Origin: Candidatus Yanofskybacteria bacterium
GTDB lineage: Bacteria > Patescibacteriota > Minisyncoccia > 2-02-FULL-40-12 > GWA2-44-9
NCBI GenBank assembly: GCA_903830625.1
Contig: CAIKUK010000015.1
Location: 37 to 64,036 of the forward strand
DNA: 64,000 nt
Direction of reading: 5' to 3'
Shown: positions 3,548-62,156 of the stretch, one piece after another
Position numbering within the stretch: position 1 is the stretch's first letter
Layout: each line of letters starts with the position of its first letter
Translations under genes and position numbers: made by a program
Notes under the pieces: generated by a model
Database searches by the model: none
The model's input: the letters and a program-made list of their open reading frames with translations, nothing else
What the model was told of the DNA's origin: nothing

Positions 3548-3584
3548 ACCCGCCTAAATTTTTAGAATAAAAACTTAGGCGGGT
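3548..3584. repeat. Palindromic hairpin repeat, family A, copy 1 (ACCCGCCTAAATTTTTAG-aata-AAAAACTTAGGCGGGT)
   Basis: 15-bp near-perfect inverted arms. Lies just downstream of the polA stop. The same element recurs at 17228, 28711 and 62120. Confidence 0.8.
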
Positions 3585-3611
3585 TTCGCGCTATTGTCGA
3601 CTAGACTATGC

Positions 3612-6260
3612 CTACTCGACAACGCTCATTTCGGCCCAATTGTCGCCGGATTTGGCGTCAACAACTATGGGAACACCGAAGTGATGAGCCGATTCCATTA
3701 TTTCTTTTATTTCTCTCGAAACATCCCCGACCATATCGTGCTTCACCTCAAAAAGCAATTCATCGTGGACCTGAAGAAGCATTCGAACCTTATCGCTATA
3801 TTTTTTATCGATAAGCTTCTGAACACCAATCATGGCCAGTTTAATCAGGTCGGCCGATGTACCTTGAATGGGCATATTGATGGCCATGCGTTCCGCCCCG
3901 GCGCGAAGCATGGGCATGGTGGAAAGGATTTCCGGAATCGGCCGACGGCGCCCAAAAAGCGTGGCCACATAACCGTCCTTCCGGGCTTGTTCTTTTACCT
4001 TTTCCAAATACTTCGCCAAGCCGGCAAATTCTTTGTTGTAGTTATCAATAAAAGCCCTGGCCTCATCCCGACTGACACCGGCCGCTCTCTGAAATCCCAA
4101 AAGACCCATGCCATAAAGAACGCCGAAATTCAAAACTTTGGCCTGTCGGCGCATGTTCGGCGTGACTTTATCCGGCACCACGTGAAATACGCCTGCCGCC
4201 GTCCGGGTGTGAATATCCTCGCCCTTTTTGAACGCGCCAGACATGGCCGGATCGCCCGAAAGATGGGCGGCCATGCGCAAATCAAGCTGGGAATAGTCGC
4301 AGGATAGTAAAACAAAATCTTTTTCGGCGATAAAGGCCTTGCGGAATTCTTGGCCGACTTCGGTCCGAATGGGAATGTTCTGTAAATTCGGGTCCTGGCT
4401 CGATAATCGACCCGTGGTCGTGCCGGTCTGGTTATAAGTAGTATGGACTCGGCCACCAGAATCAATCAACGACGGAAATGGCTCAATATAGGTTGTTTTT
4501 AGTTTCTGGAGTTCCCGGTATTTTAAAATTAAGTCAACAATGGGATGTTCGTGAGCCAGTTTTTCCAGTTCGCTATGCGCCGTCGAAAGGGCACCTTTAC
4601 CGGTCTTGCGAACCTTGCTCTTTAAATCCAATTTATCAAACAAAACTACCGATAACTGCTTGGGTGAATTGATATTAAATTCGCCGCCCGCCATTTCGGC
4701 AATCTTTTTTTCAAGGCTATCGATTTCTTTAGTGATTATAGCATCTAGTTTGCGCAATCCTTGGACATCCACCTTGATTCCTGCCCGTTCCATTCGAGCC
4801 AGGATGGGACTTAATGGCAATTCAATAGTGTTCAAAACTTTTTTCAATTCAAATTCTTCCAACTTCGGCTCATAACGTTCTTTAAGCATGGCAATATAGG
4901 CCGGCCGTTTTAAAGGTTCCGGATCCATATCTTCGCTGAACTCCGCAAAGTATAATCTTTCCAGAAGAAAATCTTTAACCTCCGAATTTAGAACGTAAGC
5001 CGCCAGTTTGGTATCAAACGTGAATCCGGCTGGCGCTATCCCTCGCTCCAACGCCCAGCGGGTAATCATCTTAATATCGTGGCCAGTCTTTTTAATTCTG
5101 GAATCAGCCAAAATCTTCCCGAACCGAGCCGAAAGGTTACCATTTTTTAACATTGTCTCCGGGAATCCGAATGACTCGTGTCTGTTTAAGCCCAGCATAA
5201 CCACGCCATCGTGAACATCGATTACAAACTCGCCGGCGGAATCAATCTGGCCCAATATTTTTTCCAATTCTGCCACCGAACCAACGAGAGTGGTTTTAAT
5301 GCCGTCCTTTGAAGTTTTCGGCACATTGGGGGCATCAAATAAACTGGCCGGTTCAGAGGCACTGCCGTCAATCTCGCCCAGACGCTTTATAATACTGTAC
5401 AGGGCCAAATCTTTGAGCAGTTTCTCCAAGGCTGGTTTATCCAAATGTTCCCGCCACTCGGTCTGACCCAAATCAAAATCAATATCGACATCTCGGATAA
5501 TGGTCGACAAATACTTGGAAAAAATTGCTTGGTCTTTGTTGGTTGTTAATCGTTCCACTAGCTTGGGTGTCAGAAGTTTGGGTTGTTTGCCTTTTTTATC
5601 CAGCGCTTCGTAAAGTTTTTCAAGACTGCCAAAATGCTGAATTAAAGCCGAAGCGGTCTTGTCCCCTATCCCTGGCACGCCCGGAATATTGTCGGACGGA
5701 TCGCCTTTCAATCCCTTGTAATCAATGAGCTGATTCGGATTCAAACCATAGCGAGCCACGACTTCTTTTTCGTTATATATCACGGTATCGGTTATGCCTT
5801 TCCGCATCGTAAATACAACCACTTTGTCTTTTTCTACCAGTTGTAAGGTATCCAAATCTCCGGTCATGATAATAACTTGCAAGTCATCAGTGGTCTTGGC
5901 TTGTTCCGCCAGAGCGCCAATCAGGTCGTCGGCTTCAAAACCAGGCTTTTCAAAAATCGGAATGCCGAACTTGGTCAAAATTTCTTTAATATAAGGAATT
6001 TGGAGATAAAGTTCGTCCGGCGCTTTGACGCGATGACTCTTGTATTCGGCGAATTCTTCATGCCGGAAAGTCGCCCCAGGCAAATCGAAAGTGGCGGCGA
6101 TATAATCGGGCTTCAAGTCCTTAATCATTCTAATCATGACCGACATAAAACCAAAGATGGCATTCGTCGGAACGCCGGTGGCAGTATTGAGCGTCGGCGG
6201 CAGGGCATGAAAGGCCCGATGAACCAGCGCGTTGGAATCAATGAGAACAAGTTTTTTCAT
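3612..6260 (-). CDS. polA: DNA polymerase I with 5'-3' exonuclease domain
   Basis: The ORF track runs 3612..6362. The probable true start is the internal MKKLVLIDSNALVHRAFHALPP (5'-nuclease N-terminus) at ~6260, which overlaps the tsaE stop in an ATGA arrangement. Pol I family A motifs are present through the C-terminus. Confidence 0.85.
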   Translation of the reverse strand: MKKLVLIDSNALVHRAFHALPPTLNTATGVPTNAIFGFMSVMIRMIKDLKPDYIAATFDLPGATFRHEEFAEYKSHRVKAPDELYLQIPYIKEILTKFGIPIFEKPGFEADDLIGALAEQAKTTDDLQVIIMTGDLDTLQLVEKDKVVVFTMRKGITDTVIYNEKEVVARYGLNPNQLIDYKGLKGDPSDNIPGVPGIGDKTASALIQHFGSLEKLYEALDKKGKQPKLLTPKLVERLTTNKDQAIFSKYLSTIIRDVDIDFDLGQTEWREHLDKPALEKLLKDLALYSIIKRLGEIDGSASEPASLFDAPNVPKTSKDGIKTTLVGSVAELEKILGQIDSAGEFVIDVHDGVVMLGLNRHESFGFPETMLKNGNLSARFGKILADSRIKKTGHDIKMITRWALERGIAPAGFTFDTKLAAYVLNSEVKDFLLERLYFAEFSEDMDPEPLKRPAYIAMLKERYEPKLEEFELKKVLNTIELPLSPILARMERAGIKVDVQGLRKLDAIITKEIDSLEKKIAEMAGGEFNINSPKQLSVVLFDKLDLKSKVRKTGKGALSTAHSELEKLAHEHPIVDLILKYRELQKLKTTYIEPFPSLIDSGGRVHTTYNQTGTTTGRLSSQDPNLQNIPIRTEVGQEFRKAFIAEKDFVLLSCDYSQLDLRMAAHLSGDPAMSGAFKKGEDIHTRTAAGVFHVVPDKVTPNMRRQAKVLNFGVLYGMGLLGFQRAAGVSRDEARAFIDNYNKEFAGLAKYLEKVKEQARKDGYVATLFGRRRPIPEILSTMPMLRAGAERMAINMPIQGTSADLIKLAMIGVQKLIDKKYSDKVRMLLQVHDELLFEVKHDMVGDVSREIKEIMESAHHFGVPIVVDAKSGDNWAEMSVVE

Positions 6261-6742
6261 TCGTGTTTTGTAATTGATATGTTTCGCTCCTGTTCCGCTA
6301 TATGGTCTACATGGATTACCCAATGGTTTCGGGGCAGAATATCGGCCACTCGTTCGGCCCACTCAATCAAAATAATCGTGCCCGGAAGATGAATAATGTC
6401 TTTTCCAAAAAATGAAAGCAAATCAACTGAGCTACTTAATCGATAACAATCGATATGATAGAGCATATGATACTTTGGAACATTGTTAAGGTGATAATGT
6501 TTCATCAAAACAAAGGTCGGACTTTTCAAGTGTTCTTCTACACCCAGCGCTTCGGCAAAAGCCTGAATGAAAGTGGTTTTGCCTGCGCCCAGTTCCCCTT
6601 CCAAAGCCACGATGATAGGCTGACCCTGGCCTTCGCGCGTCAATACCAACGCCTGTTCTCTGGCGAATTTTTGAGTCTCTTCTGGGCTATGAGAAACATA
6701 TAACATCTTGCTCATAGTAGCTTTTTTGGCTTCTTTTTTCAA
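6257..6742 (-). CDS. tsaE: tRNA threonylcarbamoyladenosine biosynthesis protein TsaE
   Basis: P-loop GELGAGKTTFIQAFA and YjeE/TsaE family length. The track start is a TTG. An ATG (MSKMLYV...) 27 nt downstream is an alternative start. Confidence 0.7.
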   Translation of the reverse strand: MKKEAKKATMSKMLYVSHSPEETQKFAREQALVLTREGQGQPIIVALEGELGAGKTTFIQAFAEALGVEEHLKSPTFVLMKHYHLNNVPKYHMLYHIDCYRLSSSVDLLSFFGKDIIHLPGTIILIEWAERVADILPRNHWVIHVDHIAEQERNISITKHE

Positions 6743-6746
6743 ATGA

Positions 6747-6820
6747 AAAACCGCACTCTTTCGACAACCCTATGAAAGGGATGATTGAGTGCGGTCGCGG
6801 CGAGGCCAAAGGCCTCGCCG
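6747..6820 (-). terminator. Tandem GC-rich hairpins followed by a T-run (read on the minus strand). They terminate the high-GC two-gene operon just upstream of the tsaE start.
   Basis: CGGCGAGGCC-aaa-GGCCTCGCCG perfect 10-bp stem, then CCGCACTC...GAGTGCGG followed by TTTTT on the minus strand. Confidence 0.5.
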
Positions 6821-6826
6821 GAATAA

Positions 6827-7177
6827 CTAGCGGTTTCTCGGATCGTCCCACATAGACCCTTCTGTGAGGACGGAAACCGGAGTAGGTGTTGGTGGAGGAA
6901 CTGTTGGCGGTGGTGTCTGTTGGACCTGGATCACCACTGGGACCGGCTGTGCAACCGCCACTGACGCTGGTTGTACATTCCGAGTCTGACCAAAGACCCC
7001 ACCCAGAATCAGCCACGGAACAATGATGAGAAGTAGTCCTAGTGGAATCACCCACCAGGAATACCTTACCCACCAGGAACCTTCGAACGGACCGAGTCTC
7101 CAATCTCGGTCCGTTCCGATTACCATCGAGCGATTTCCTTGAACCACTCGACGCTGAACATCGAAGCGCTGAGCCAT
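6827..7177 (-). CDS. Hypothetical proline-rich membrane protein (high-GC island gene 2)
   Basis: 116 aa with one TM segment (WWVIPLGLLLIIVPWLILGGVF) and a Pro/Thr-rich tail. Its ATG overlaps the upstream gene stop. GC content is far above the window average. Confidence 0.45.
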   Translation of the reverse strand: MAQRFDVQRRVVQGNRSMVIGTDRDWRLGPFEGSWWVRYSWWVIPLGLLLIIVPWLILGGVFGQTRNVQPASVAVAQPVPVVIQVQQTPPPTVPPPTPTPVSVLTEGSMWDDPRNR

Positions 7178-7965: not shown

Positions 7966-8070
7966 GAGCTGTCTCCTAAGCCCCGACGCGGTTTGCGTGA
8001 GGCTAAAACGAATTGATATTGAGTTTTCGAGGTACATTCCCCCCGCTCCTAATACCTACATTATACCACA

Positions 8071-8502: not shown

Positions 8503-8724
8503 GAGTAAAACTTAGCATCTTTTTATATCAACACCAATGGTTGACCCGCAGGGTAGGTTTGTGGTACCTTCAATGTACATTCTCGCAAGAGAATTTTCCC
8601 GTTTATAAAGCCTCTTAGCCCCAATCTAATTAAGACCACCCTCACAAATTTAGTTCGCCGGATTCAAACGGCTTTTCGGCCTTTTTCATCTAATTTTGAA
8701 GTTTTTCTCAAGTCTGAAAAATCC

Positions 8725-9780
8725 ATGATAACAACCACTTTAGTGGTTGTTATCATGTTAATCGCGATTAAAGGGCCCACTGGAGACCAACCCGGTATCG
8801 TGGGGAGTGTTGTGCGACACTACACAGAGGAAACATCGGCTTCCATCATCCCTACCGAAACCAAACTCCAGCTGACCGACATTAGTAGTCTTATGGGGAA
8901 TAATGTTCCGGCCACTAACCGAGGTCAAGGAGGCTCTGAAGATTACATTTCTTCAACCGTTTATCTTATCCAAGATGATTCTGTACAAGCGGTCAATTCG
9001 GTGTCAGTGAATTATCTGGACGACATCAAACCGAACAAAATTACCAATTACACAGTCTTACCGGGTGACGCTCTGTCGTTCATTGCTTCAGACTTCGGCG
9101 TCAGTACTGAATCCATTATTTGGGCCAATAAACTCACTGATATCAATAACATTTCCCCAGGCCAAATTCTAAGAATACCCCCAATCTCGGGGGTTATCCA
9201 TTCGGTTCAAAAAGGCGATTCAGTTTCCTCTATTGCTAAAAAATATAACGCCGACAGCGCTAGAATTATAGCTTTTAACGAACTCGGCGATGATTCAAAA
9301 CTTGTTTCAGGAACTGATCTAGTGATACCTGATGGCGAGATGACAAAAGCCACGGCCGGAAGTAAAACTAGCGTTAAATACGGGGCCACATCAAGTGTCG
9401 CCAAAAAATTCGCGTATCTTCCGGACATGGGAGATTATTTCGGAATACCTGCAACTGGTTTTGACTGGGGGATTGTCCACGGCCGCAATAGTGTAGACGT
9501 TGCCAATGCTTGCGGGACGCCAATTAAGGCCTCGGCTAACGGAACAGTGGTCATTGCCTTAAGTTCCGGTTGGAACGGTGGATTCGGCAAGTATATTAAA
9601 CTGGTCCATTCAAATGGCACCGAAACTCTTTACGGGCATTTGAGCAAACTTCTCATTACCGAGGGTGAAGTTGCGGCCAAAGGCCAAGAAATTGGTCTCA
9701 TGGGTACAACGGGTAATTCGACGGGTTGCCATCTCCATTTTGAAGTTCACGGCGCCCGCAATATTCTAGCCAAATACTAA
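8725..9780 (+). CDS. LysM-domain M23 family metallopeptidase
   Basis: Two LysM repeats (GDALSFIASDFGVSTESIIWANKL and GDSVSSIAKKYNADSARIIAFNEL) and a C-terminal M23 core (HGHLS...GTTGNSTGCHLHFEV). The first 33 nt of the ORF form a perfect 14-bp hairpin. Confidence 0.8.
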   Translation: MITTTLVVVIMLIAIKGPTGDQPGIVGSVVRHYTEETSASIIPTETKLQLTDISSLMGNNVPATNRGQGGSEDYISSTVYLIQDDSVQAVNSVSVNYLDDIKPNKITNYTVLPGDALSFIASDFGVSTESIIWANKLTDINNISPGQILRIPPISGVIHSVQKGDSVSSIAKKYNADSARIIAFNELGDDSKLVSGTDLVIPDGEMTKATAGSKTSVKYGATSSVAKKFAYLPDMGDYFGIPATGFDWGIVHGRNSVDVANACGTPIKASANGTVVIALSSGWNGGFGKYIKLVHSNGTETLYGHLSKLLITEGEVAAKGQEIGLMGTTGNSTGCHLHFEVHGARNILAKY

Positions 9781-11768: not shown

Positions 11769-11964
11769 ATGAGTTTCATGGTATCCGAATACAAAATAAA
11801 AGTAAACTAAAAGGCGCGGATGCCTCGTTAAAGATGATTGCGAGTGTGACACCGCGCCTTAAGACCAAATTTTGCCAACAGTCAGTGACTGTTACAAAAC
11901 TGCCAGCAACTTTCAAGGAACATTACTGAAACAACTTGCCCTTACTCGTTCAGTATAGTCCCTT

Positions 11965-12156
11965 GGTGACACTAGTGTCAATTTTTAAAAGTTGATAAGT
12001 GTCACCATGTCACTAGTGTCACCATGTTTAAACAAATGGCTTTAACAAAAGCTTTTCAATGGTGACACTGGTGACATTTGTTAGTGTCACCATGCTCCCA
12101 AATGTCACCTAGTCACAGGTTATAAACAATGTCACCCGCAGATGTGGGTGACATTG
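11965..12156. repeat. Array of at least 10 GGTGACA/TGTCACC heptamers, including an 18-bp perfect palindrome and an 11-bp inverted repeat
   Basis: GGTGACACTAGTGTCA at 11965, AGTGTCACCATG three times, GGTGACACTGGTGACA, and CAATGTCACCC-gcagatgt-GGGTGACATTG at 12127-12156. The array lies in the 330-bp region upstream of the dksA-like gene. Confidence 0.7.
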
Positions 12157-12180
12157 AAAAAACTATATCGAATTAAACGT

Positions 12181-13563
12181 TTATCTGACTGGAACAGTGA
12201 AGGCATCAATAACAGCGAACATGGCTTCCCGAGAACCGGCTATAACCATAAAGGTTTTACCGCCAGATAATACAAAGGCGTAATCTATAGAATGATCAGG
12301 GTAAGAGAAATTCTTGAAGCGAACTGACACACCATTGTAACTGGTAGATATAAATGAGCCGGTATTTTTAGATGGCGTAATAGACATCACTCCGGACAAA
12401 TTGGCACTCATGGTCGGTTCCCAGCCTTGAAGAATACCGACCGAAGAACTGGCCACTTCGCTAATCATCACTAGCCGAGAACCTGGAACAACACCAGTGG
12501 CTAATCGGCCTTTGTTGTCAAAAGACTCTTTTTGGCCATACAGTAAAAACTTATAATACTGGCCGAACGATGCCGGAAGCGACGACGGATATGCCACTAC
12601 GAAACGGTTTAATAAACCGGAAATCGTAAGCACTTGAGCGCTATCGGAAGCCCCGCTAGCAATATTGATTGCCGTTAGAGTCCCTGCGGTTATATTAGGC
12701 TGAGCACTGATGCCATTCTTAAATGCCATGGCCGGGTCTCCCGCCGATGGAAGCATAATAGTTCCGCCCTGGATCGTAAATATTGTGGAAAGTACGTCTG
12801 GATTGGGAGTGGCCGTCGGAACAAACGTAGCTGTAGGAGTAGGAGTTTCTTCAGCCACTTGGCTAGGACTCTGGATAAAGAAATACCAGTAAAGACCGCC
12901 GAAAACCACTATCACGGCCGCGATAATGATAAAGAAAAGATTTCTGGAACTGGCTGGTTTGGTTTCGGCGGCGGGCGGAACATAGAACTGATTCTTCTGG
13001 TCAGATTTCATTTCAGGAGTCTTGGATGCTTGGGGCATTGTGGGCATAACTGGACGGGGGATAGGTGTAGAAACAGGAGGTTTTGGAGCCTGATTCGGTG
13101 TCGATGGCATTGGAGCTGATTTTGTAGCTGAGGGCATGCTTACGGTCGGGCCTAGTTTAGACGGAGCGGGGGCAGAAGTTACGGGCGGAACAACTGGTTT
13201 GACTGGAACCGGAGTATTATCGATTTTCCTAGGAATATTAACCCCCTGAGGCTGTTGGCCGGCTTTAAGCTTGGATAAATCATCACTCATGGTCCGAATA
13301 GAAGATTGGTATTCTTTGGGAACTGAAGGAACAACCGGAGTCGCTGGAGCGGGATTTGGTCTGGGAGGCAGAGGAACCGAATTTGAAGCTATGGGTGGCG
13401 GACCCATGGGTCGAGGCGGAGGCATGGGTGTTGGTTGGGATATTGAACTTTGAGTCGAAGGAGAAGCTGGGCTTGGCGGGGAACCTTGGGGACGACTTAG
13501 TTCTTTAACTAAATCATCGATGTTTGATTGAGAAGCTGATGAGTTTGGACTTTTGTCGTCCAT
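12181..13563 (-). CDS. Hypothetical proline-rich single-pass membrane protein
   Basis: 460 aa. The N-terminal ~200 aa is Pro/Ser/Thr-rich, followed by one TM (FFIIIAAVIVVFGGLYWYFFI) and a ~230 aa C-terminal domain of unknown function. Confidence 0.5.
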   Translation of the reverse strand: MDDKSPNSSASQSNIDDLVKELSRPQGSPPSPASPSTQSSISQPTPMPPPRPMGPPPIASNSVPLPPRPNPAPATPVVPSVPKEYQSSIRTMSDDLSKLKAGQQPQGVNIPRKIDNTPVPVKPVVPPVTSAPAPSKLGPTVSMPSATKSAPMPSTPNQAPKPPVSTPIPRPVMPTMPQASKTPEMKSDQKNQFYVPPAAETKPASSRNLFFIIIAAVIVVFGGLYWYFFIQSPSQVAEETPTPTATFVPTATPNPDVLSTIFTIQGGTIMLPSAGDPAMAFKNGISAQPNITAGTLTAINIASGASDSAQVLTISGLLNRFVVAYPSSLPASFGQYYKFLLYGQKESFDNKGRLATGVVPGSRLVMISEVASSSVGILQGWEPTMSANLSGVMSITPSKNTGSFISTSYNGVSVRFKNFSYPDHSIDYAFVLSGGKTFMVIAGSREAMFAVIDAFTVPVR

Positions 13564-17227: not shown

Positions 17228-17295
17228 ACCCGCCTAAATTTTTAGAATTTTTACGAAAAATGTCTGAAAGACATTGTTCTAAAAACTTAGGCGGG
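17228..17295. repeat. Palindromic hairpin repeat, family A, copy 2, with a nested inner hairpin inserted in the loop
   Basis: ACCCGCCTAAATTTTTAGAA ... TTCTAAAAACTTAGGCGGG. The inner AATGTCT-gaa-AGACATT lies in the divergent rpsO/xerC intergenic region. Confidence 0.75.
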
Positions 17296-17343
17296 CAACT
17301 GGCTTCGCTTTGTGTCGCATAACGTTATATAATGCAGATAATG

Positions 17344-17403
17344 GACCAGGTAGTGAAAGTCCGACTGGGTTTGAGAAGCGACGAATAATCACTATTACTG
17401 GTC
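17344..17403. repeat. Inverted-repeat element, family B, copy a (GGTAGTGAAAGTCCGAC ... CACTATTACTGG)
   Basis: Shares its 5' and 3' arms with the copies at 27183 and 35823. This copy is the most diverged. Confidence 0.5.
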
Positions 17404-17458
17404 AATGTACATAACAAGAAATTCGATAGTGCGTGTTTAGGTCTCAAACCTAAGGAGC

Positions 17459-18391
17459 ATGTCGGACTTCTACTACCTGGTGGACTTGAAAACGCTCAAA
17501 ATTCAATACTTGGAACACCTGGAAATCGAAAAGAACCGTTCACCTAAAACGCTCGAGAACTACAACCGGTACTTAGATCGGTTTCTGCAATTTGCTAAAG
17601 TAACTAAGCCGCATGATCTCGATGGTGAGAGGATAAGGCAGTACCGGCTGCACTTGAATCGTCTCACTGATAATTACGGACAGCCCCTGATGAAAGTTAC
17701 CCAGAATTATCACATTATTGCCCTCCGAAATTTTTTGAAATACCTGGCCAAGAGGGGAGTGAAAAGCGTCTCGGCAGAAACCATTGAACTGGGCCGGGCC
17801 GAGGACCGCCACGTCACTTTTCTGGAGCACAGCGAGCTGGACCGGTTGCTCAATGCCCCGGAAGGTTCGGATCTAAACGCCCTGCGCGACCGAGCTATAT
17901 TGCGAATGCTGTTTTCAACGGGCATGCGCGTCTCCGAACTTTGTTCCATGGACCGCAGTAAGATTGACTTGAAGCGAGGTGAGCTTTCAGTGCTCGGCAA
18001 AGGCCGAAAAATCAGATTGGTTTTCTTGTCGGAAGACGCTAAGGACCAAATCGGCCAATATATCGCCAAGCGGACCGACGTGGACGAAGCCTTATTTATC
18101 CGCATTCCGAAAAGCAAGAAATTTTCCAAAGATTCCGACTTGCGCCTCACGCCCCGTTCAATCCAGCGCATCGTCCAAAAATACGCTATTAAAGCCGGCA
18201 TCATCGGCAAACATGTTTCGCCTCACACCTTGCGTCATAGTTATGCCACCGATCTACTCCGCAACGGCGCCGACATCCGTTCCGTCCAAGCCATGCTCGG
18301 CCATTCTTCGGTCACGACCACTCAAATCTACACCCACGTCACCGATACCCAGCTCCGCGAAATCCATAAAAAGTTTCATGATAAGAAATAA
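17459..18391 (+). CDS. xerC: Tyrosine recombinase XerC/XerD family
   Basis: 310 aa. N-terminal core-binding domain and C-terminal catalytic RHRY region (HTLRHSYATDLL...LGHSSVTTTQIYTHV). Confidence 0.8.
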   Translation: MSDFYYLVDLKTLKIQYLEHLEIEKNRSPKTLENYNRYLDRFLQFAKVTKPHDLDGERIRQYRLHLNRLTDNYGQPLMKVTQNYHIIALRNFLKYLAKRGVKSVSAETIELGRAEDRHVTFLEHSELDRLLNAPEGSDLNALRDRAILRMLFSTGMRVSELCSMDRSKIDLKRGELSVLGKGRKIRLVFLSEDAKDQIGQYIAKRTDVDEALFIRIPKSKKFSKDSDLRLTPRSIQRIVQKYAIKAGIIGKHVSPHTLRHSYATDLLRNGADIRSVQAMLGHSSVTTTQIYTHVTDTQLREIHKKFHDKK

Positions 18392-18795: not shown

Positions 18796-19221
18796 ATGAA
18801 ATGGTATTTTGCCTCTCGAGTAAGACATCAAAACAAGATCATAGAGATTACAGAATTTCTCAAACATAAAGGGCAAGATGTTCTGTCTAACTGGGTCTAT
18901 GAAAGTGCTCTCAAGCCATACCACGAGAACATAGATAAAGTTCAAAAACTGGCAACCGAGGTAACCGCTTCTTTGTTGGCAACTGATATTTTTGTGCTCG
19001 TTAGCGACCCCGAGGGAACCGATATGTTTATTGAGCTCGGCGTTTGTTTGGCCAAGAGCACGACTTCTCCGCGAGATATTAAAATATACATAATCGGTGA
19101 GTATTCGAAGCGATCATTAATGCAACTACATCCATCAATTACGCATTTAAAAACACTGCGTGAAGTATTCGAAAGGGAAGGGATTGATTCCAGTGATTTT
19201 ATTATTCCTTCTTTAGATTGA
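18796..19221 (+). CDS. Nucleoside 2-deoxyribosyltransferase-like (Rossmann/SLOG-like) protein
   Basis: 141 aa. KWYFASRVRH N-terminus and DIFVLVSDPEGTDMFIELGVCLAK resemble the NDT-family conserved blocks. Assigned by motif memory only. Confidence 0.35.
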   Translation: MKWYFASRVRHQNKIIEITEFLKHKGQDVLSNWVYESALKPYHENIDKVQKLATEVTASLLATDIFVLVSDPEGTDMFIELGVCLAKSTTSPRDIKIYIIGEYSKRSLMQLHPSITHLKTLREVFEREGIDSSDFIIPSLD

Positions 19222-19254
19222 AAAAATTCCTCTTACGAGGAATTTTTTCTTTTG

Positions 19255-22986: not shown

Positions 22987-23001
22987 GTGCGACTAATAAT
23001 G

Positions 23002-23090
23002 CGGAGAAGGAGGGATTCGAACCCTCGAGGGGGTTTAAGCCCCCTACATCTTTAGCAAAGATGCTCGATAGACCACTCCGACACTTCTCC
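23002..23090 (-). tRNA. tRNA-Ser (anticodon GCT)
   Basis: 89 nt class II: acceptor GGAGAAG/CTTCTCC, anticodon loop TTGCTAA, long variable arm, T-loop TTCGAAT, discriminator G. Confidence 0.75.
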
Positions 23091-24188: not shown

Positions 24189-24279
24189 GGAGGAGTGCGT
24201 GAGTGGATAAAAACGAGCAGTTTACTAAACTGCCAAGCTCGCAAGAGCTTCGTGGGTTCGAATCCCACCTCCTCCGCCA
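24189..24279 (+). tRNA. Class II Ser-like tRNA with apparent ACT anticodon (atypical)
   Basis: 91 nt including an encoded CCA. Acceptor GGAGGAG/CTCCTCC, 3-bp D-stem, anticodon stem GCAGT/ACTGC with loop TTACTAA, long variable arm, T-loop TTCGAAT, G73. It differs from the neighbouring tRNA-Ser(GCT) loop by G34 to A. Confidence 0.5.
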
Positions 24280-27182: not shown

Positions 27183-27318
27183 GGCCGGGTAGTGAAAATT
27201 CGACTGGTTTTCTTTAGCGCCATTCGTAACATCACATCTGGCTATAACAATTTAGAGATTCGTAAGCTGTGGCTCACCTAAGAAAACGGTGGTGCAGGTC
27301 GAATTTCTACTATCCCGG
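27183..27318. repeat. Inverted-repeat element, family B, copy b (CCGGGTAGTGAAAATTCGAC ... GTCGAATTTCTACTATCCCGG)
   Basis: ~20-bp terminal inverted repeats enclose ~95 nt. The 3' arm abuts the GTG start of pilN. Confidence 0.6.
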
Positions 27319-28710: not shown

Positions 28711-28747
28711 ACCCGCCTAAGTTTTACTTCGTAAAATTTGGGCGGGT
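28711..28747. repeat. Palindromic hairpin repeat, family A, copy 3 (ACCCGCCTAAGTTTTA-cttcg-TAAAATTTGGGCGGGT)
   Basis: Lies between the pilO-operon segment and pilB. May act as an internal terminator or attenuator. Confidence 0.75.
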
Positions 28748-28807
28748 GACAAGTTTCTAGCAACTCAGCGTCGCTATCAGATAGCTAGCTTCGTTGGGAA
28801 ACATCTC

Positions 28808-35816: not shown

Positions 35817-38236
<2,420 letters not shown>

Positions 38237-38557: not shown

Positions 38558-39966
38558 TCCCCGAAAACCTGACTATTGTAAAAGCCCGAGCCGGCCTCAA
38601 CCGAGGCGATTTTTCGGCGGAAGAATTATTTTCCCATTACCATAAAAAGATCCAGGAAAAGAACGAAGAGATTTTTGCTTACTTAACTCCTTTTAATGAA
38701 CCGGGTCCGATAACCAAAGAGGGGGCTTTAGCTGGCATACCCTGCGCTATCAAAGATAATATGCTCATTGAAGGCACCCGCACGACTGCCGGTTCTAAAA
38801 TTCTGGAAAATTATATCGCTTCCTATACCGCCACCGCCGTCACTAAATTAAAAAAGGCCGGCGCTCTGATTTTGGGCAAAACAAACCTGGACGAATTCGC
38901 CATGGGCAGTTCCACTGAGAATTCGGCTTACGGCCCGACCAAAAATCCGCTGGATACTACCCGTATCCCGGGCGGTTCTTCCGGCGGTTCGGCCGCGGCT
39001 GTGGCCGGGGATTTAGCTGTCTTTGCTTTAGGTTCCGATACTGGCGGTTCTATCCGCCAGCCGGCGGCGATGTGCGGTATTGTCGGACTAAAACCAACTT
39101 ATGGCCGAGTTTCGCGACACGGTTTGATTGCTATGGCTTCATCGTTTGATCAGATTGGCCCGCTAACCAAAACCGTGGAAGATGCGGCTATTGTTTTAAA
39201 CGAGCTCTGTGACCACGATATTTTTGATTCCACGACGGTCAACAATGAAGTGCCAGATTTTACCACCACTCTTAATGATTCCATCAAAGGTTTGACCGTC
39301 GGCGTGCCGAAAGAATTTTTCGGCACCGGACTTTCAGCCGAAGTTGAAGAGCGAGTAAAATCAGGCATTGCTAAACTAAAGGAGCTCGGCTGTAAAATTA
39401 AAGAAATATCTCTGCCGAACTTTGAATACGCTCTGGCCGCTTATTATATTGCCGTGCCCAGTGAAATCTCGGCTAACTTGGCGCGCTTTGACGGTATCCG
39501 TTATGGCCATTCGGTTCAAAATGGCGAAAACCTGATTGACACCTATTTTAAATCCCGCACCGAGGGTCTGGGGCCAGAACCGGTTCGCCGGATTATGCTC
39601 GGCGCTTATGCCTTATCATCCGGTTACTATGACACTTATTATTTGAAAGCCCAAAAAGTCCGCGCGCTTATTAAAAAAGATTTTGATGAGGCGTTTAAAA
39701 AAGTTGATGTTATTGTCGGACCGACAGCACCCCACACCGCTTTCAAGATAGGGGAGAAGGTTTCCGACCCATTAGCGTTATACTTAGAGGATATTTATAC
39801 CGTGCCCTTGAATCTGGCCGGACTGCCAGGCATCTCGATTCCTTGTGGTTTAGGTTCAGTCAGTAAAATGCCAGTTGGATTACAGATTATCGGCAAACCA
39901 TTTGATGAATCCACCCTATTACGTGTCGCGCATCAACTTGAACAAGCTTTGAAATCCCGCACATAA
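38554..39966 (+). CDS. gatA: Glutamyl/aspartyl-tRNA amidotransferase subunit A (amidase)
   Basis: Amidase signature [12 protein letters not shown] and Ser-cisSer-Lys region. 470 aa. Confidence 0.85.
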
Positions 39967-39975
39967 ACGCTATAT

Positions 39976-40161
39976 ATGTTCCATGTATATGTGTTAAAGA
40001 GTGTAAAATTTGATAAGCTATACATCGGGATTACGGATAATATTCGACGAAGGGTATTGGAACATAACTCAGGCGTCTCTAAATCTACGAAGAAGTATAC
40101 GCCGTGGAGATTGGTGTACTACGAAACTTACTTGTCAGAAAAAGATGCACGAAATAGATAA
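39976..40161 (+). CDS. GIY-YIG nuclease family protein (short, 61 aa)
   Basis: FHVYVLKS...KLYIGITDNIRRRVLEHNSG contains the GIY, YIG, R and EHN motifs. It terminates earlier than typical ~90 aa members. Confidence 0.6.
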   Translation: MFHVYVLKSVKFDKLYIGITDNIRRRVLEHNSGVSKSTKKYTPWRLVYYETYLSEKDARNR

Positions 40162-40235
40162 TTAAAGTTAAAACACTATGGACAGACTTTTCGACGTCTC
40201 AAGGAACGCTTGACGGAAAGCCTGGGATAGCGTTT

Positions 40236-40823
40236 ATGTGCGGGATGGACCAAATCTATAACCAATTTCTATTCGCGCTCTATCAATGGACTTCTGGTCA
40301 AGTCGGTAGTTTTAATATGGCCGATATCGCTGTTAATTTCCAGAATGCCTTTCTAGATTCTCCATTAGTTCATTTTATTGAAGTTTTCTCGGCGATTATC
40401 ACGATTGTTTTTGGCGCTGCCGCCGTTTACTTAGTGATTAAGCGCAAAGAATTTGATGAAAAAATAGCCAGCCAAGAAGTCGTACCGGCTCAAGCCGTCG
40501 GCGGTAGTCCGTTGAAAGACCAGTGGAATGATATTCTGCGCCATATTGATTCTATCCATGAAGGCGAATGGAAGTTTGCCGTGATTGAAGCCGACACCAT
40601 CGTGGATAATGTTTTAAAAAATTATTTCCCGGGCGACACGATGGGGGATCGCCTGATGAATATCGATAAAACCAAACTCCTGTCCATTGATGACCTCTGG
40701 GAAGCTCACAAGATCCGCAACCATTTGGCTCACGATCCCAATTATTTTCTCCGCCATGCCGAAGCTCTCCGCGCAGTCCGCCTTTTTGAATCCACTCTCA
40801 AAGAACTCGGGATATTAGAGTAA
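40236..40823 (+). CDS. Hypothetical membrane-anchored protein with HEPN-like R-x4-H motif
   Basis: One TM (VHFIEVFSAIITIVFGAAAVYLVI). The C-terminal helical domain contains KIRNHLAHDPNYF. Family uncertain. Confidence 0.35.
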   Translation: MCGMDQIYNQFLFALYQWTSGQVGSFNMADIAVNFQNAFLDSPLVHFIEVFSAIITIVFGAAAVYLVIKRKEFDEKIASQEVVPAQAVGGSPLKDQWNDILRHIDSIHEGEWKFAVIEADTIVDNVLKNYFPGDTMGDRLMNIDKTKLLSIDDLWEAHKIRNHLAHDPNYFLRHAEALRAVRLFESTLKELGILE

Positions 40824-44760: not shown

Positions 44761-44881
44761 AAGCTAGCAAAAACCTTAAAAATCTGATAAAATAGATAAT
44801 GAAAACGGGCTATGGTGTAGCAGTAGCACGCACCGTTCGGGTCGGTGTAGCTCCGATGCAATTTCGGATAGCCCGACATAT

Positions 44882-48618: not shown

Positions 48619-48619
48619 A

Positions 48620-58162: not shown

Positions 58163-58164
58163 CC

Positions 58165-58695
58165 ATGGCCATGGAAGAAGATGGAATAAAGCACAACGAG
58201 GAAGTGCTTCGAAGTAAGAACAGGGTACCAACCGTTAATGAGCACAACGAGGAAGTGCTTAAACTTAAACTTGACCAAGAACGAACCGAGTATAATCAGC
58301 GGCTGGCTACAGAGCAGGAGGAACGAGAGCCATACTCAACAAAACCAGCAGAAAAGATGGGCTTGTTATTTTTTATTTTTGCCATGTTCTTTTGTGTTAT
58401 CGGCGATTTAATAGATTTTTTTACGGGTGGCACTATCGGTTGGCTGATTGGTTTGTTTATTGACGGTATTCTGGCCCTTATGTTTGGCTTGTCCAAAGCG
58501 GGCCGAAAACAATTTAAACGGATGGCAGTCGGTTTAATCGGCGAAAGTTTTCCGATTATTGCGACCTTGCCACTAAGAACTATTTTTTTAATCTGGTCTT
58601 TTGTCAGTTCACATAGTAAGATGGCCAGGAAAGCTGGGGATAAACTTGAACGTCAAACTAGTAAGGCGGAGCCAATCCTTAGTGTCACTGGATAA
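58165..58695 (+). CDS. Hypothetical membrane protein
   Basis: 176 aa with a charged N-terminus and three TM segments. The N-terminus contains a duplicated 19-nt segment. Confidence 0.4.
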   Translation: MAMEEDGIKHNEEVLRSKNRVPTVNEHNEEVLKLKLDQERTEYNQRLATEQEEREPYSTKPAEKMGLLFFIFAMFFCVIGDLIDFFTGGTIGWLIGLFIDGILALMFGLSKAGRKQFKRMAVGLIGESFPIIATLPLRTIFLIWSFVSSHSKMARKAGDKLERQTSKAEPILSVTG

Positions 58696-58700
58696 ATCAT

Positions 58701-59786
58701 ATGGAAGGTAGCCAAAAACAACTTCTTATCCTGATAGTAATCACGGCTTCGCTGACCTCTTTTTTGGCGGGCTATCTTTTAACCCAGCCGGCTGGACAAA
58801 GCGCCGATGTTATTCAGCAACAGCGGGGTGCTTTAATTGACCGCTTTAGCGATATTCCCGGCAATACCACCCCCACACCATTGCCTCCAGGACTGCTTCA
58901 GGCCACTGCCGAATCTTCTCTTTCAGCCACCAACTCTCCTGACAGCAACGCCGTCTTGTATTACCACCCGATCAATGGTTTTGTGTCTAAACTTGACCTT
59001 GAAACTCGTAAAAATACTATCATTTCCACCACTCAATTAAACAGCTTGACCAATGTCATCTGGTCGCCAAACAAAAACCGCGTGATTACGGTCTCCAGAA
59101 GTTCGGCTGGGCCAACATATAAATATTTTGATTATACTACCCGAGAAAATGGCTTGTTGGGCGCCAATATTAAAGATGCTGTTTTTTCTCCCGATAGCCA
59201 AAGTATAGCTTTGGTCCGTTCGGCTGGAGGCGATAGTAATATAGAGATTACCGATTTTAAAGGCAAGAACTCACAGACAATTCTAAAAACTCGACTCACT
59301 GGTATTCGTCTTTTCTGGCCAAGTAATAATATTCTGTCGTTTATCGCCAATGACGCCAATATGGGCACTCAGAGCCTTTATATTGTCACAGAAAACGGCG
59401 ACCTCAGTCAGCTTCTGGGAGGGGAGTATGGTCTGACTGTACACTGGTCTCCTGATGGATCGAAGTTATTATACTCAGTCCGAGAAAATGAGAAGGTAGT
59501 ATTGCAACTTTTTGATGTTGCTTCCAAACAATCCCAAATCTTGCCGGTACAGACCAGCGCCACAACCTGCGCTTGGCCTTTGAACCAACACTCAATAATC
59601 TGCGCCGCCGAAACCGAAGGTGAAACTTCAATCACTCAAATAAACTTGACCGACAATTCAACAAAAATATTATTTTCTAATCTGATTATCTCACCCAAGG
59701 ACGTTTTCATGTCTCACTTGGAAGACTTCGTTGTCATCACCAGCGCCGGCGACCAAAGCATCTGGGAATTGAAGCTAGCCCAATAA
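58701..59786 (+). CDS. Membrane-anchored beta-propeller-like (TolB/PD40-like) protein
   Basis: 361 aa with an N-terminal TM and repeated ...SPD(G/S)...L...motifs suggestive of PD40/WD40-like blades. Confidence 0.4.
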   Translation: MEGSQKQLLILIVITASLTSFLAGYLLTQPAGQSADVIQQQRGALIDRFSDIPGNTTPTPLPPGLLQATAESSLSATNSPDSNAVLYYHPINGFVSKLDLETRKNTIISTTQLNSLTNVIWSPNKNRVITVSRSSAGPTYKYFDYTTRENGLLGANIKDAVFSPDSQSIALVRSAGGDSNIEITDFKGKNSQTILKTRLTGIRLFWPSNNILSFIANDANMGTQSLYIVTENGDLSQLLGGEYGLTVHWSPDGSKLLYSVRENEKVVLQLFDVASKQSQILPVQTSATTCAWPLNQHSIICAAETEGETSITQINLTDNSTKILFSNLIISPKDVFMSHLEDFVVITSAGDQSIWELKLAQ

Positions 59787-59787
59787 T

Positions 59788-59817
59788 TAAAAACACCCTC
59801 TATGGAGGGTGTTTTTA
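59788..59817. terminator. Bidirectional rho-independent terminator
   Basis: AAAAACACCCTC-tatg-GAGGGTGTTTTT. Confidence 0.7.
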
Positions 59818-59839
59818 ATTTATAGTTCCATAAGAGTTA

Positions 59840-60211
59840 TCAGGGCCCAACCAAAATAGCCCAGTATAAGAAAGAAGAAAATGTAACTACTGGGATAAAA
59901 TATACGAAAAATATTCCCACTCTATTTTGATTTTGCTGCCATAGGGGAGCTAGAGAGATTAAAGAAAGAACAACCCAAAGAAAAGTCGAAATTCCTCCCA
60001 AAAATCCAAATATCATAAATCCCCAGGGAATAAATAAATTGTAGGCAAAAAAGATGAGGCAAAAAACTATTGAAAAGATTAACCACCTTGAAACTTTTGA
60101 ACCAAAGAGTTTGTCGCGTCTAAATAAAAAAATAGACCATAAGCTTAAAATTACAGGAAAACCAAAAAGGATTATTATTACCAGCCATGAAATTATCTGA
60201 TCAATTGTCAT
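59840..60211 (-). CDS. Hypothetical membrane protein
   Basis: 123 aa with four hydrophobic helices. Downstream of jag. Confidence 0.4.
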   Translation of the reverse strand: MTIDQIISWLVIIILFGFPVILSLWSIFLFRRDKLFGSKVSRWLIFSIVFCLIFFAYNLFIPWGFMIFGFLGGISTFLWVVLSLISLAPLWQQNQNRVGIFFVYFIPVVTFSSFLYWAILVGP

Positions 60212-60220
60212 TTAACAAAA

Positions 60221-60697
60221 TTAAGACCGGTAAGGCTTCACCACGATGCGGCGCTGTGGTTCTTGGCCGATACTCTCGGTAGTAACATCGGAGATGGCGG
60301 CCAGCTCCATGTGAACAATACGGCGTTCGTAGGGGGACATGGGGACAAGGGCTTCAGCTCGTTGAGTATTACGGACGCGCTGGACTGCTTCTTTGGCCAA
60401 CGTGGCGACATAGGTCGCTCGGGATTTTTTATAATCATTCACATCCACAAACAAAGTCAGTCCCTCGGTTTGTTTCAAGAACAGGCTGCGCATGACATGT
60501 TCCAGAGCCTGAAGATTTTGGCCGTTTTTACCAATCAAGAATTTGGCATCTTCGGGCGCGGAAATCGAAGCAAAGACAATCTCTTTGTCGCCGACTTTTT
60601 CTTCCCGAACAACTACTTCACACGCCACATTCATGGGTGTAATGATCCGTTTGATAGTTTCGGTGATATTATTCTTTTGTTCAGGGGTAAGGCTCAT
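60221..60697 (-). CDS. jag: Jag/KhpB-type KH and R3H domain RNA-binding protein
   Basis: 158 aa with KH (LIGKNGQNLQALEHV) and R3H (YERRIVHMEL) signatures. Canonical position after yidC. Confidence 0.75.
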   Translation of the reverse strand: MSLTPEQKNNITETIKRIITPMNVACEVVVREEKVGDKEIVFASISAPEDAKFLIGKNGQNLQALEHVMRSLFLKQTEGLTLFVDVNDYKKSRATYVATLAKEAVQRVRNTQRAEALVPMSPYERRIVHMELAAISDVTTESIGQEPQRRIVVKPYRS

Positions 60698-60811
60698 CCC
60701 GTTAGAAGTAATTTAAACAGCCGATACGGTTTAACAAAGGGCTGATTTGTTTTACTTTGATTATCATATTAATTTATTAGCGGACCCATTGTGGGTTACT
60801 TCTAACGGGAC

Positions 60812-61513
60812 TCATTTGGCGGTTCTTAAGTAAAGTTGCTCTCCGATTGAAAAGGTGGTTGTGGTTATCCAGTATAGTATCAGACCCGCCTGAATATTCC
60901 AACCGATAATCACAATCATGATTGGGAAGAAATAAAGCATCTGAGTATTCAAAGCGGCCATCTGAGGGTTAGCGCCGCCGGCTTTCATGTAGGCCATACT
61001 CTGTTTAGCTTGAATAAATTGCAAAACACCGGCCAAAATAGCCAGAATAATATTCCGACCGGAAATACTAATCAAGCCCAGGAATAGGGGGTTGATAGAA
61101 CCCGGGTTTTGGACAAACGGATACAACATCCCCAAGCTTTGTGGATTTAGGCCAGCGATAAAAACCTGATAGAGCGCTATGAGAATGGGGAGCTGAATCA
61201 ATAAAGGCAAACAACCAGCCAAAGGATTGACGTTGTGTTCTTTGTAGAGTTGCATCATCGCCGCGCCTTGAGCAGCTTGGTCGTGTTTGTGTTTCTCTTT
61301 AATAGCCTGGATGTGAGGATTGATGGCATTTAAAGCCCGCTGGGAACGCTGGGCTTTTATCGAAAGAGGTAAGAAGATAAAACGAATAACAATGGTCAGA
61401 GCGATAATGCCCAGGCCCAAGTCATGATTGGGCATAAAATTAGAAAGAAAAATCAGCGCATTAAAGAGTGGGATATAGATAACAATTTTAAAAAATGAAA
61501 ATATGGAACTCAT
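60812..61513 (-). CDS. yidC: Membrane protein insertase YidC (short form)
   Basis: 233 aa with 5 TM segments. Conserved LYKEHNVNPLAGCLPLLIQLPI region. Confidence 0.8.
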   Translation of the reverse strand: MSSIFSFFKIVIYIPLFNALIFLSNFMPNHDLGLGIIALTIVIRFIFLPLSIKAQRSQRALNAINPHIQAIKEKHKHDQAAQGAAMMQLYKEHNVNPLAGCLPLLIQLPILIALYQVFIAGLNPQSLGMLYPFVQNPGSINPLFLGLISISGRNIILAILAGVLQFIQAKQSMAYMKAGGANPQMAALNTQMLYFFPIMIVIIGWNIQAGLILYWITTTTFSIGEQLYLRTAK

Positions 61514-61740
61514 GATGGATAATCAACACCTCCCGAAGTTAACGGATTACAGCGTATGATGCGACCCAAAGCTTTCCAGGAACCCCTAATGGCGCCGTGT
61601 TTGTGGACAGCTATTTCGGCATATTCGGAACAGGAGGGATAAAACTTACAGGGCGTATAGACCAGGCCTGGCACTTGAGCCAAACGAAGCCATGATGCCA
61701 CTTGGCGATAAAAGCGAATAAAAAATAGGATAGGATTCAT
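61510..61740 (-). CDS. yidD: Membrane protein insertion efficiency factor YidD
   Basis: Start at MNPILFFIRFYRQ. CKFYPSCSEYA motif. The track ORF has an unsupported N-terminal extension that overlaps rnpA. Confidence 0.75.
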   Translation of the reverse strand: MNPILFFIRFYRQVASWLRLAQVPGLVYTPCKFYPSCSEYAEIAVHKHGAIRGSWKALGRIIRCNPLTSGGVDYPS

Positions 61741-62075
61741 ATAAATTTGGCTTGACGCAAGACAGCCACAAAATCGTCCCGAATAACTGATGTTTCCGTC
61801 GGGATTTTCTTCGTGACCACTACTACGGTATCGCATGATGGCATATTGGGCAAGCGTTCGGGCCAAACAACATCGGCCAGGAGCCGCCGAACCTTGTTTC
61901 GGAGTACCGCTTTCGGGGCAAACTTGGCCGCGACAATAAAACCGAAGCGCGGATAACCCAGAGAAGACGATAGAAACTTCATGAATAAAAAGGTGCCATT
62001 TAAAGCCTTTCCTTTTTTGAAAACTAAATCAAACTCCTTCTTTTTTTTGAGACGATTCTTGGTAGGGAGAGCCAT
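61737..62075 (-). CDS. rnpA: Ribonuclease P protein component
   Basis: ALPTKNRLKKKKEFDLVFKKGK...RNKVRRLL, typical RnpA. The start is taken at the second Met. Confidence 0.75.
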   Translation of the reverse strand: MALPTKNRLKKKKEFDLVFKKGKALNGTFLFMKFLSSSLGYPRFGFIVAAKFAPKAVLRNKVRRLLADVVWPERLPNMPSCDTVVVVTKKIPTETSVIRDDFVAVLRQAKFI

Positions 62076-62119
62076 GCGATTATAGCCCACGAGTGAAACG
62101 AGTGGCTGCTATAATCAGC

Positions 62120-62156
62120 ACCCGCCTAAGTTTTGCTTCGCAAAATTTAGGCGGGT
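62120..62156. repeat. Palindromic hairpin repeat, family A, copy 4 (ACCCGCCTAAGTTTTG-cttcg-CAAAATTTAGGCGGGT)
   Basis: Lies between rpmH and rnpA. Confidence 0.8.

Follow-up and report, generated by a model that had tools for sequence, protein, structure and literature searches.

The window analysed here, a 64,000-nt stretch of contig CAIKUK010000015.1 from Candidatus Yanofskybacteria bacterium, contains four near-identical hairpins, which we refer to as Family A. Copy 1 (3548-3584, with the core CCCGCC...GGCGGG at 3549-3583) lies 27 nt past the stop codon of polA and 55 nt ahead of the ATG of fpg, and the strand on which it shows a G.U pair and a UUC loop (minus) is the sense strand for both genes. 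Copy 2 (17228-17296, minus strand) occupies the divergent spacer of rpsO and a xerC-like gene, and copy 3 (28711-28747, plus strand) is located between orf91, a 91-aa open reading frame (ORF) following pilO, and pilB. Copy 4 (62120-62156) is found between rpmH (62196-62342, minus strand) and rnpA (minus strand, ATG at 62075), with its G.U/UUC strand (plus) being antisense to the rpmH-rnpA operon. Pfam assignments support the neighbours (polA, fpg, rpsO, xerC-like, pilO-orf91, pilB, rpmH, and rnpA) and, together with the ORF coordinates, bear out the gene contexts named in the original prediction, an earlier reading of this DNA. The positions given there were also accurate, apart from the end of copy 2, which had been placed at 17295. 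None of the four copies carries an ORF.

The 9-mer CCCGCCTAA occurs seven times in the window on both strands (0.47 expected), a count that none of 100 shuffled sequences reached, and the 15-mer arm gives nine matches at up to two mismatches (0.5 expected), eight of which are arms of the four hairpins. A relaxed search for paired-arm hairpins detected no fifth copy in the window, and 30 shuffles gave no match either. All copies fold stably as RNA, forming stems of 17-20 bp with 3-nt loops and free energies of -18 to -35 kcal/mol. The z-scores of these folds are -2.6 to -3.5 where the A.C strand of copy 1 or copy 3 is folded and -4.8 to -7.1 for the other six strands, including the minus strand of copy 1 (-25.1 kcal/mol, z -5.3) and the plus (sense) strand of copy 3, which has two G.U pairs (-27.8 kcal/mol, z -7.0). 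Copy 2 has the same arms and first loop bases (TAGAA) as copy 1 and corresponds to copy 1 with a ~30-nt insertion at the loop apex. This insertion bears its own mini-hairpin (AATGTCTGAAAGACATT), and the nested inner hairpin proposed earlier is real. The earlier description of 15-bp arms with the loop as the only variable part proved less exact. The stem extends 2-3 bp further into what had been taken as the loop, and the arms differ as well, with a pyrimidine (Y) at arm position 8, a purine (R) at position 11, and a variable closing base.

A paired-arm pattern scan of species-representative genomes revealed Family A in at least 117 stretches from at least 81 different species-level assemblies, and the repeat family that had been predicted from the window is therefore lineage-wide. 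The family statistics given below refer to 125 copies among the matches listed, and genes in these loci (L numbers) were called using a crude longest-ORF rule. All securely labelled assemblies among the matches listed belong to the Parcubacteria group and include Yanofsky-, Kaiser-, Buchanan-, Nealson-, Colwell-, Vogel-, Lipton-, Taylor-, Taga-, Portnoy-, Nomura-, and Uhrbacteria, as well as Paceibacteria. Automated third-party assemblies are the source of the labels 'Saccharibacteria', 'Gammaproteobacteria', 'Ignavibacteria', and 'Peribacteria'. At least some of these labels look wrong, as locus L061 has orthologous flanks in common with Yanofskybacteria loci, and because the outlying labels look unreliable we claim only the Parcubacteria-group distribution as secure. 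The window PilB is 91% identical to a Yanofskybacteria protein, and the window PNPase shares 68% identity with that of L046. Among 2.9 million viral contigs, not one matched the paired-arm pattern, which speaks against carriage by phages.

Family A hairpins match none of 4227 Rfam families at the gathering score, and at gathering thresholds the window and 38 loci contain only tRNA, rRNA, and L10 leader hits, none of them at the hairpins. A literature search with the exact arm sequences and keywords found no description of Family A, which is apparently an undescribed element. No flanking motif is conserved across the family, in which only lineage-specific composites were found. For example, six Yanofskybacteria-type loci (L004, L040, L047, L061, L088, and L092) contain the conserved block TTTAGCCGGAAA-[Family A hairpin]-CAAACGGATGCTAAA (e.g. 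L047 4660-4725). Its outer TTTAGC and GCTAAA could pair and the sequence diverges beyond the block, which may represent a larger structured unit.

The Family A core (~35 bp) has the structure CCCGCCYAARTTTT-(NN-TTC-NN)-AAAAYTTRGGCGGG, in which two 14-bp terminal inverted repeats (CCCGCCYAARTTTT and AAAAYTTRGGCGGG) form one hairpin of 16-19 bp. The hairpin has an intrinsic polarity, defined by a G.T pair and a TTC loop. The oriented strand of each window copy reads ...TAAGTTTT-NN-TTC-NN-AAAATTTA... with a G.T (G.U) pair and the TTC loop, and the opposite strand shows an A.C mismatch and a GAA loop. Across the family, the R:Y stem position is occupied by G.T or A.C in 92 of the 125 copies, by A-T in 30, and by G-C in 3, compared to ~19 G-C expected. 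When copies with 7-nt loops are placed in the G.T orientation, the central triplet is TTC 23 times and GAA four times. Orientation relative to replication was also considered and rejected, as the window copies read -, -, +, + on one replichore and show no consistency.

The pairing of Family A is maintained through compensatory changes, and the element is selected as a hairpin. In the 75 copies with 7-nt loops, the bases flanking the central triplet pair in 71 and 62 copies. Among 74 such copies that could be aligned, the first loop-proximal pair is GC in 41, AU in 11, UA in 10, and CG in 6, with 4 copies unpaired, and the closing pair is GC in 23, AU in 17, GU in 6, and CG in 4. The covariation score of this alignment was reached by none of 500 shuffles, and compensated variants of the type CCCTCC...GGAGGG are present in the family. 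The second variable stem position (Y:R) shows no covariation (TA 57, CA 27, TG 27, CG 14; n = 125).

These properties bear on the view that Family A is a DNA-level palindrome, which would provide half-sites for a dimeric protein or an uptake signal for the type IV pilus/competence machinery, the inverted pairs then arising as with Neisseria uptake sequences. In line with such a role, the 14-nt arm is conserved in sequence beyond the needs of pairing, the Y:R position varies independently between the arms, and genes for the pilus and for competence occur universally in this group, the window included. However, 251 arms were found in hairpins and only 16 exact arms outside them, and most of the outside arms inspected at up to one mismatch are slightly diverged hairpins. 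Arms almost never occur alone, which argues against uptake sequences as well as simple half-site operators. The spacer between the arms (5-45 nt) is itself base-paired and fits a folded hairpin rather than a B-DNA operator. In addition, the target-site duplication and in-frame copies described below indicate insertion, not the accumulation of point mutations. Both the half-site and the uptake version of this explanation appear to us the most improbable of those considered.

A perfect 4-nt direct repeat is present directly outside the CCCGCC...GGCGGG core in 20 of the 125 copies, compared to 1.2 expected from permuted partners, and other offsets give at most two exact 4-mer matches. The repeated 4-mers are diverse, including CTGG/CCAG (seven copies), CTTG/CAAG (three), TCAA (three), and others. 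This 4-bp repeat is a target-site duplication. The 35-nt core and the 4 duplicated nucleotides add up to 39 nt, or 13 codons. Nested copies, one of them sitting within the other's loop, were found in L110 and L077.

The four window copies are all intergenic, as predicted, but this does not hold for the family, in which 28 of the 125 copies (~22%) lie deep inside ORFs of at least 100 aa and others in rRNA genes. All 25 long-ORF copies that were translated are in frame and encode (A/T)R(P/L)(N/S)FxxxNLGG or PPKFxxxKLGRA; the third reading frame of the element would yield TAA. In-frame copies were identified in PolA 5'-nuclease, UvrB-like, ComF-like, RecG-like, helicase, and KsgA proteins, and in PolA, UvrB, and KsgA they contribute ~13 residues to protein loops. 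In the PolA 5'-nuclease of L037 the insert is positioned between EADDIIGT and TGDLD, and the window polA, L092, and L107 have no insert. Homologues of the ComF-like, RecG-like, and helicase proteins also lack the element-encoded residues, and the KsgA pair shows a difference of only ~3 residues. In L036 and L087, the element occupies an identical site of orthologous proteins in different reading frames, and therefore it is the nucleotide sequence that is conserved rather than the peptide. The 7-nt loop is found in 21 of 24 copies within coding sequences (CDS), compared to roughly half of the remaining copies. The possibility that the ORF copies are really inside rRNA was rejected for most of them, since these ORFs are real genes (PolA and other homologues). 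Split genes or RNA-level excision of the hairpin also found no support, with five short-spacer cases separating complete, distinct genes.

Copies next to or inside rRNA operons were found in 7 of the 117 listed loci. In L084, the 16S V1 helix is a Family A copy and a second copy precedes the 16S 5' end by ~10 nt. In L057, copies are located just upstream of the 23S gene and at two of its internal variable helices; stem-loops at variable 23S helices of this locus were placed at 3544, 4123, and 2095-2402, with L060 lacking the insert at the matching site. In L060, L063, and L035, copies flank the 23S gene. The V1 region of 16S genes also hosts another invasive hairpin type. Long A+T-rich hairpins of AAATTC/AAAATC-type repeats fill this region in L029 (1981-2153) and L116 (3837-4182), and the orf91-pilB spacer of L199 (905-1000), which is closely related to the window, is occupied by a similar A+T-rich hairpin.

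The orf91-pilB spacer, which holds copy 3 in the window, was compared in relatives with 75-92% PilB identity. In L205 the spacer is absent (TAAATG), L204, L202, and L199 have unrelated hairpins, and L201 contains the mini-hairpin CCCGCCTAAGGCGGG. In L200 (PilB identity 91%), the flanks are as in the window, but CCCCCTCACTC...GAGTGAGGGGG stands exactly in place of the Family A core, and the unit replaced coincides with the core as bounded by the 4-nt repeats.

Short imperfect palindromes of this kind recall the repetitive extragenic palindromic (REP) elements, and the original prediction had called the repeat REP-like. REP elements carry a conserved GTAG/CGTC tetranucleotide at one end and have been hypothesised to stabilise mRNA 3' ends (PMC3733652). 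Like Family A, REP elements and bacterial interspersed mosaic elements (BIME) are imperfect palindromes of 20-40 nt repeated in operon spacers. Family A differs from them by the absence of the GTAG/CGTC tag, by its target-site duplication, and by being neither strictly extragenic nor species-specific. The term is acceptable as a loose analogy for a short dispersed palindrome. A system of the REP/RAYT (REP-associated tyrosine transposase) type would mobilise the hairpins as single-stranded DNA by means of a domesticated Y1 (HUH) transposase encoded elsewhere. The short multicopy palindrome and the strand polarity conferred by its conserved mismatch are features that HUH enzymes use, and loop apices and hairpins are apparently targets. 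Nevertheless, a 4-bp target-site duplication is not expected of single-strand transposition of the IS200/IS605 type, no conserved flank replaces the missing tag, and the sequence extends radiation-wide and into genes. No Y1 transposase was found by Pfam in ten recurrent neighbour clusters drawn from 865 ORFs of the 117 listed loci, whole genomes being unscanned. A REP/RAYT-type origin is very unlikely in our estimate.

Clustering of the same 865 neighbouring ORFs showed recurrent LepA/EF-type GTPases, response regulators, and similar proteins, and no transposase-like or other enriched neighbour family beyond these. The LepA/EF-type GTPase genes recur in 9 of the 117 listed hairpin loci. In L047 (2-2200, minus strand), the GTPase domain of a LepA (EF4) homologue contains a PD-(D/E)XK nuclease domain (PDDEXK_3, residues 85-198).

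Longer elements with Family A-type arms were also identified. In L057, the arms ACCCGCCCAACTTTTT and AAAAAGTTGGGCGGG enclose an 84-aa GIY-YIG ORF inside the 23S gene. This ORF is preceded by TATAAT and AGGA, and L060 has no insert at the corresponding position. A metagenome search with the L057 GIY-YIG protein gave 80 loci with 68 testable ORFs. Tight bracketing by significant inverted repeats was observed for 41 of the 68 related GIY-YIG ORFs and for none of 68 shuffled controls, and the bracketing repeats can be grouped into a small number of arm families. Arms of the Family A type surround GIY-YIG ORFs in L057, L118-L122, L124, and L127; three of the latter seven elements are in 23S genes and the rest elsewhere. 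The enclosed proteins are stand-alone GIY-YIG domains of the UPF0213/YhbQ type. In the ~1 Mb of DNA examined, the sole long elements with Family A arms are these GIY-YIG-bearing ones (290-305 bp). No intron family was detected around them, and they show no residence in a self-splicing intron or intein.

The window contains a related long hairpin element at 39954-40246 (plus strand), with perfect 20-bp inverted repeats ATCCCGCACATAAACGCTAT at 39954-39973 and 40227-40246. The stop codon of gatA falls within its left arm and the ATG of the next ORF abuts its right arm. The enclosed UPF0213-type GIY-YIG ORF (39976-40224) is probably a decaying pseudogene, because an in-frame TAA interrupts it after 61 codons. 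At 60697-60810, between yidC and the next gene, there is a perfect inverted repeat of 15 bp (TCCCGTTAGAAGTAA / TTACTTCTAACGGGA) whose loop measures 84 nt. Its arms are similar to the ACCCCGTTAGAGAT arms found around GIY-YIG ORFs in L125-L136, and the repeat could be a remnant of a sister family that has no ORF left. In L016 (3400-3800, minus strand), a GIY-YIG ORF is located in its own inverted repeat GATTTTTATGAATTCAAAAATG, directly after an apparent 5' half of a tRNA. This element adjoins intact tRNAs and may be a tRNA insertion. Group I introns occur in Patescibacteria tRNA genes (PMC13011429).

The original prediction had also proposed that the repeat doubles as a terminator or attenuator, and this part of it is not supported. 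None of the four window copies has a T-tract or was called by a terminator scan, which did call canonical terminators elsewhere in the window (e.g. 16057-16034 and 19220-19249). A T-run of at least four within 9 nt on either side accompanies 24 of the 125 copies, and 81% have none. Short-spacer copies are found between complete genes of conserved operons (gatC|gatA, yidC|jag, murA|mreB, and NYN|ftsH). Like Rho-independent terminators, Family A has a stem with a G+C-rich base and forms a stable hairpin downstream of stop codons. In contrast to them, it lacks the U-tract and the position at the end of a transcription unit, is found within operons, CDS, and rRNA, and keeps a single fixed sequence instead of differing from site to site. 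Family A is not an intrinsic terminator, and the four window sites should not be annotated as such, although an RNA-level side effect on stability or processing is possible. Taken as a whole, the earlier observation of a hairpin family is confirmed and its interpretation is partly supported.

[quoted passage not shown] Active transposition, a moving enzyme, and any effect at the RNA level are what we infer from the comparisons described here. The element would insert with a 4-bp target-site duplication, and a standard copy would add 39 nt. Copies therefore survive in three settings, namely between genes, in frame within surface loops of proteins, and at the ends of variable rRNA helices. Apices of hairpin loops are favoured targets too, accounting for nested copies and loop insertions. 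In the long versions, the loop holds a small GIY-YIG gene of the UPF0213 type together with a promoter-like sequence belonging to it, and the short hairpins would most likely be their non-autonomous relatives or landing pads that these versions colonise. The four window copies are ORF-less copies in operon spacers, and any effect on mRNA, such as a stable 3' hairpin or a processing site, would be a by-product.

Several observations weigh against a mobile element. The target-site duplication is found in only 16% of the copies and in none of the four in the window, and it is not consistent around the GIY-YIG-bearing elements. We recovered no exact pair of filled and empty alleles in which the empty site holds the 4-mer only once, and no transposition was observed. 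No IS-sized partner or classical transposase with Family A arms was found in the ~1 Mb examined (whole genomes were not scanned), and GIY-YIG nucleases are not known to act as transposases. Furthermore, selfish repeats do not usually preserve a 14-nt arm sequence throughout so deep a radiation, and this conservation hints at a host function or at a trans-acting reader that is itself conserved. Three further points, namely a fixed layout around copies 1, 3, and 4, the recurrence of hairpins at one site in relatives, and a bias in strand sense, are compatible with selection at the RNA level.

The layout consists of a stop codon, the hairpin, a second stem-loop, and an ATG. The second stem-loop UUCUAACAACUCAGCGUCGC..GCUUGCUUCGUUGAGAA lies between copy 1 and the fpg ATG (3493-3547, minus strand), where it forms a composite of ~100 nt with the hairpin, and the same module is present between copy 3 and the pilB ATG (28748-28807, plus strand). 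A variant, GAUUAUAGC..CCAC..GUGG..GCUAUAAUC, is found between copy 4 and the rnpA ATG (62076-62119, minus strand). On the sense strand, these stem-loops end 4-10 nt before the ATG of the next gene. The ~55-nt leader common to copies 1 and 3 also occurs in L078, L105, and L200, and a flank resembling the variant of copy 4 was found in L053. As for the relatives, nearly all of them have some hairpin in the orf91-pilB spacer. The strand bias concerns the G.U strand: of 31 oriented co-directional spacers, 20 have it as the sense strand, compared to 6 of 22 CDS copies (Fisher p = 0.012).

These three points could be expected of a host-functional RNA hairpin, serving to protect 3' ends from exonucleases, as a processing site of the RNase III type like those of rRNA operons and rpsO-pnp-type leaders, or as a U-tract-independent attenuator. 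Such a signal would set the relative expression of adjacent cistrons, with a conserved RNA-binding protein reading the stem. Consistent with this, the folds are very stable, G.U is retained over G-C, 16 of 22 CDS copies have the weaker A.C strand as their sense strand, copies are enriched at and inside rRNA operons, and the hairpin is 100% identical in three loci despite diverged flanks. However, the same 35 nt also form in-frame parts of essential genes, to which an RNA signal would do harm, and the target-site duplication points to insertion rather than evolution in situ. The hairpin at the orthologous orf91-pilB site is exchanged for unrelated sequence or absent in close relatives, its orientation to transcription is mixed (copy 4 being antisense), and both a T-tract and an Rfam match are lacking. 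We therefore regard both this function and the proposed protein reader as unlikely, although more plausible than a REP/RAYT system or a DNA-level signal.

A bolder form of the mobile-element interpretation, which we put forward tentatively and as doubtful, combines Family A with its sister families (arms ACCCCGTTAGAGAT, GCCCTGTGAAATA, ACCCCCACACCTAATT, ATCCCGCAC, and others) in one unrecognised mobile class, with the GIY-YIG-bearing long hairpin as the autonomous form and the 35-bp hairpins as its miniatures. The GIY-YIG nuclease would cut hairpin or cruciform DNA, which would let the elements invade the apices of loops, the tips of rRNA helices, and loops within genes across the candidate phyla radiation. 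If true, this would give a function to a widespread orphan nuclease family and explain many of the insertions in CPR rRNA and proteins. Family A also offers an entry point for studying the orphan UPF0213 GIY-YIG nucleases nesting in the same hairpins. It could further serve as a simple sequence marker for the radiation and as a caution for gene callers and rRNA aligners.

The window has several other palindromic and promoter-like features. Copy 2 is abutted by a promoter-like sequence, TTGCAA-17-TACAAT with a TG motif (17228-17200, minus strand). A second hairpin family is present at 17345-17481, 27187-27315, and 35823-35886, with arms of ~20 nt (CC.GGTAGTGAAAGTYCGAC / GTCGRACTTCTACTACC.GG) around loops that measure 95, 93, and 22 nt. 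One of its copies overlaps the start of the xerC-like ORF beside copy 2. Overlapping palindromes built from TGGTGACACTAGTGTCACCA are located at 11956-12077 in the spacer 11852-12181, and this cluster, which includes an 11/12 promoter-like match at 11981-11952, resembles an operator array. A perfect 16-bp palindrome (CATGATAACAACCACT / AGTGGTTGTTATCATG) at 8724-8757 lies over the ATG of the ORF at 8725 and overlaps promoter-like matches on both strands. ARAGORN predicted tRNAs at 23001-23090, 24189-24279, and 44806-44877 that were not reported by the Rfam tRNA model at its gathering score, including a tRNA-Ser with the odd anticodon ACT.

Among known mobile elements, RPEs are palindromic repeats found in frame in housekeeping genes and in intergenic DNA, where they add a short peptide to tolerant loops, and have no known transposase (PMC10969869). 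Family A resembles them in its in-frame insertion in unrelated protein genes and in the lack of a known transposase. However, RPEs are ~100-150 bp in length, comprise some ten families, and are confined to Rickettsia, whereas Family A has a 35-bp core and one arm sequence in at least 81 CPR genomes. Unlike RPEs, Family A also shows a 4-bp target-site duplication, copies in rRNA helices, and long GIY-YIG versions. The two were compared by description, and given their sizes (35 vs ~150 bp) and hosts, homology between them is implausible.

Bacterial MITEs (e.g. Correia/NEMIS, ERIC, and RUP) share with Family A the terminal inverted repeats, the target-site duplication, the dispersed non-coding nature, and the ability to form RNA hairpins. 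MITEs are typically ~50-500 bp, and Family A is several-fold smaller, consisting of two inverted repeats and a 7-nt spacer; it would rank among the smallest transposable units described. In contrast to MITEs, no insertion sequence (IS) with Family A ends and a DDE transposase was found in the ~1 Mb examined, and the coding relatives carry GIY-YIG only.

Double-hairpin elements and GC clusters have reportedly been described from the mitochondria of fungi and chytrids, including Allomyces, by Paquin, Laforest, and Lang. Like Family A, these elements are small mobile hairpins in spacers, variable rRNA, and coding regions, and they occur near endonuclease ORFs including GIY-YIG ones. They differ in belonging to organelle genomes, in their unrelated sequences, and in the double-hairpin unit.

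CPR bacteria have tiny streamlined genomes, and yet their rRNA genes and proteins are full of unexplained insertions. In CPR rRNA, GIY-YIG ORFs have been found in non-intron insertions alongside many unexplained insertions of <200 bp, in a study that mentions no hairpins, inverted repeats, or repeated sequence family (PMC11270868). The Family A copies in L057, L084, L119, L121, and L122 fit this description. Like Family A, rRNA intervening sequences are stem-loops at the tips of variable rRNA helices, some of them with small ORFs, but Family A is not specific to rRNA and is dispersed in spacers and coding genes as well. One 35-bp hairpin in at least 81 species would thus account for part of the CPR insertions.

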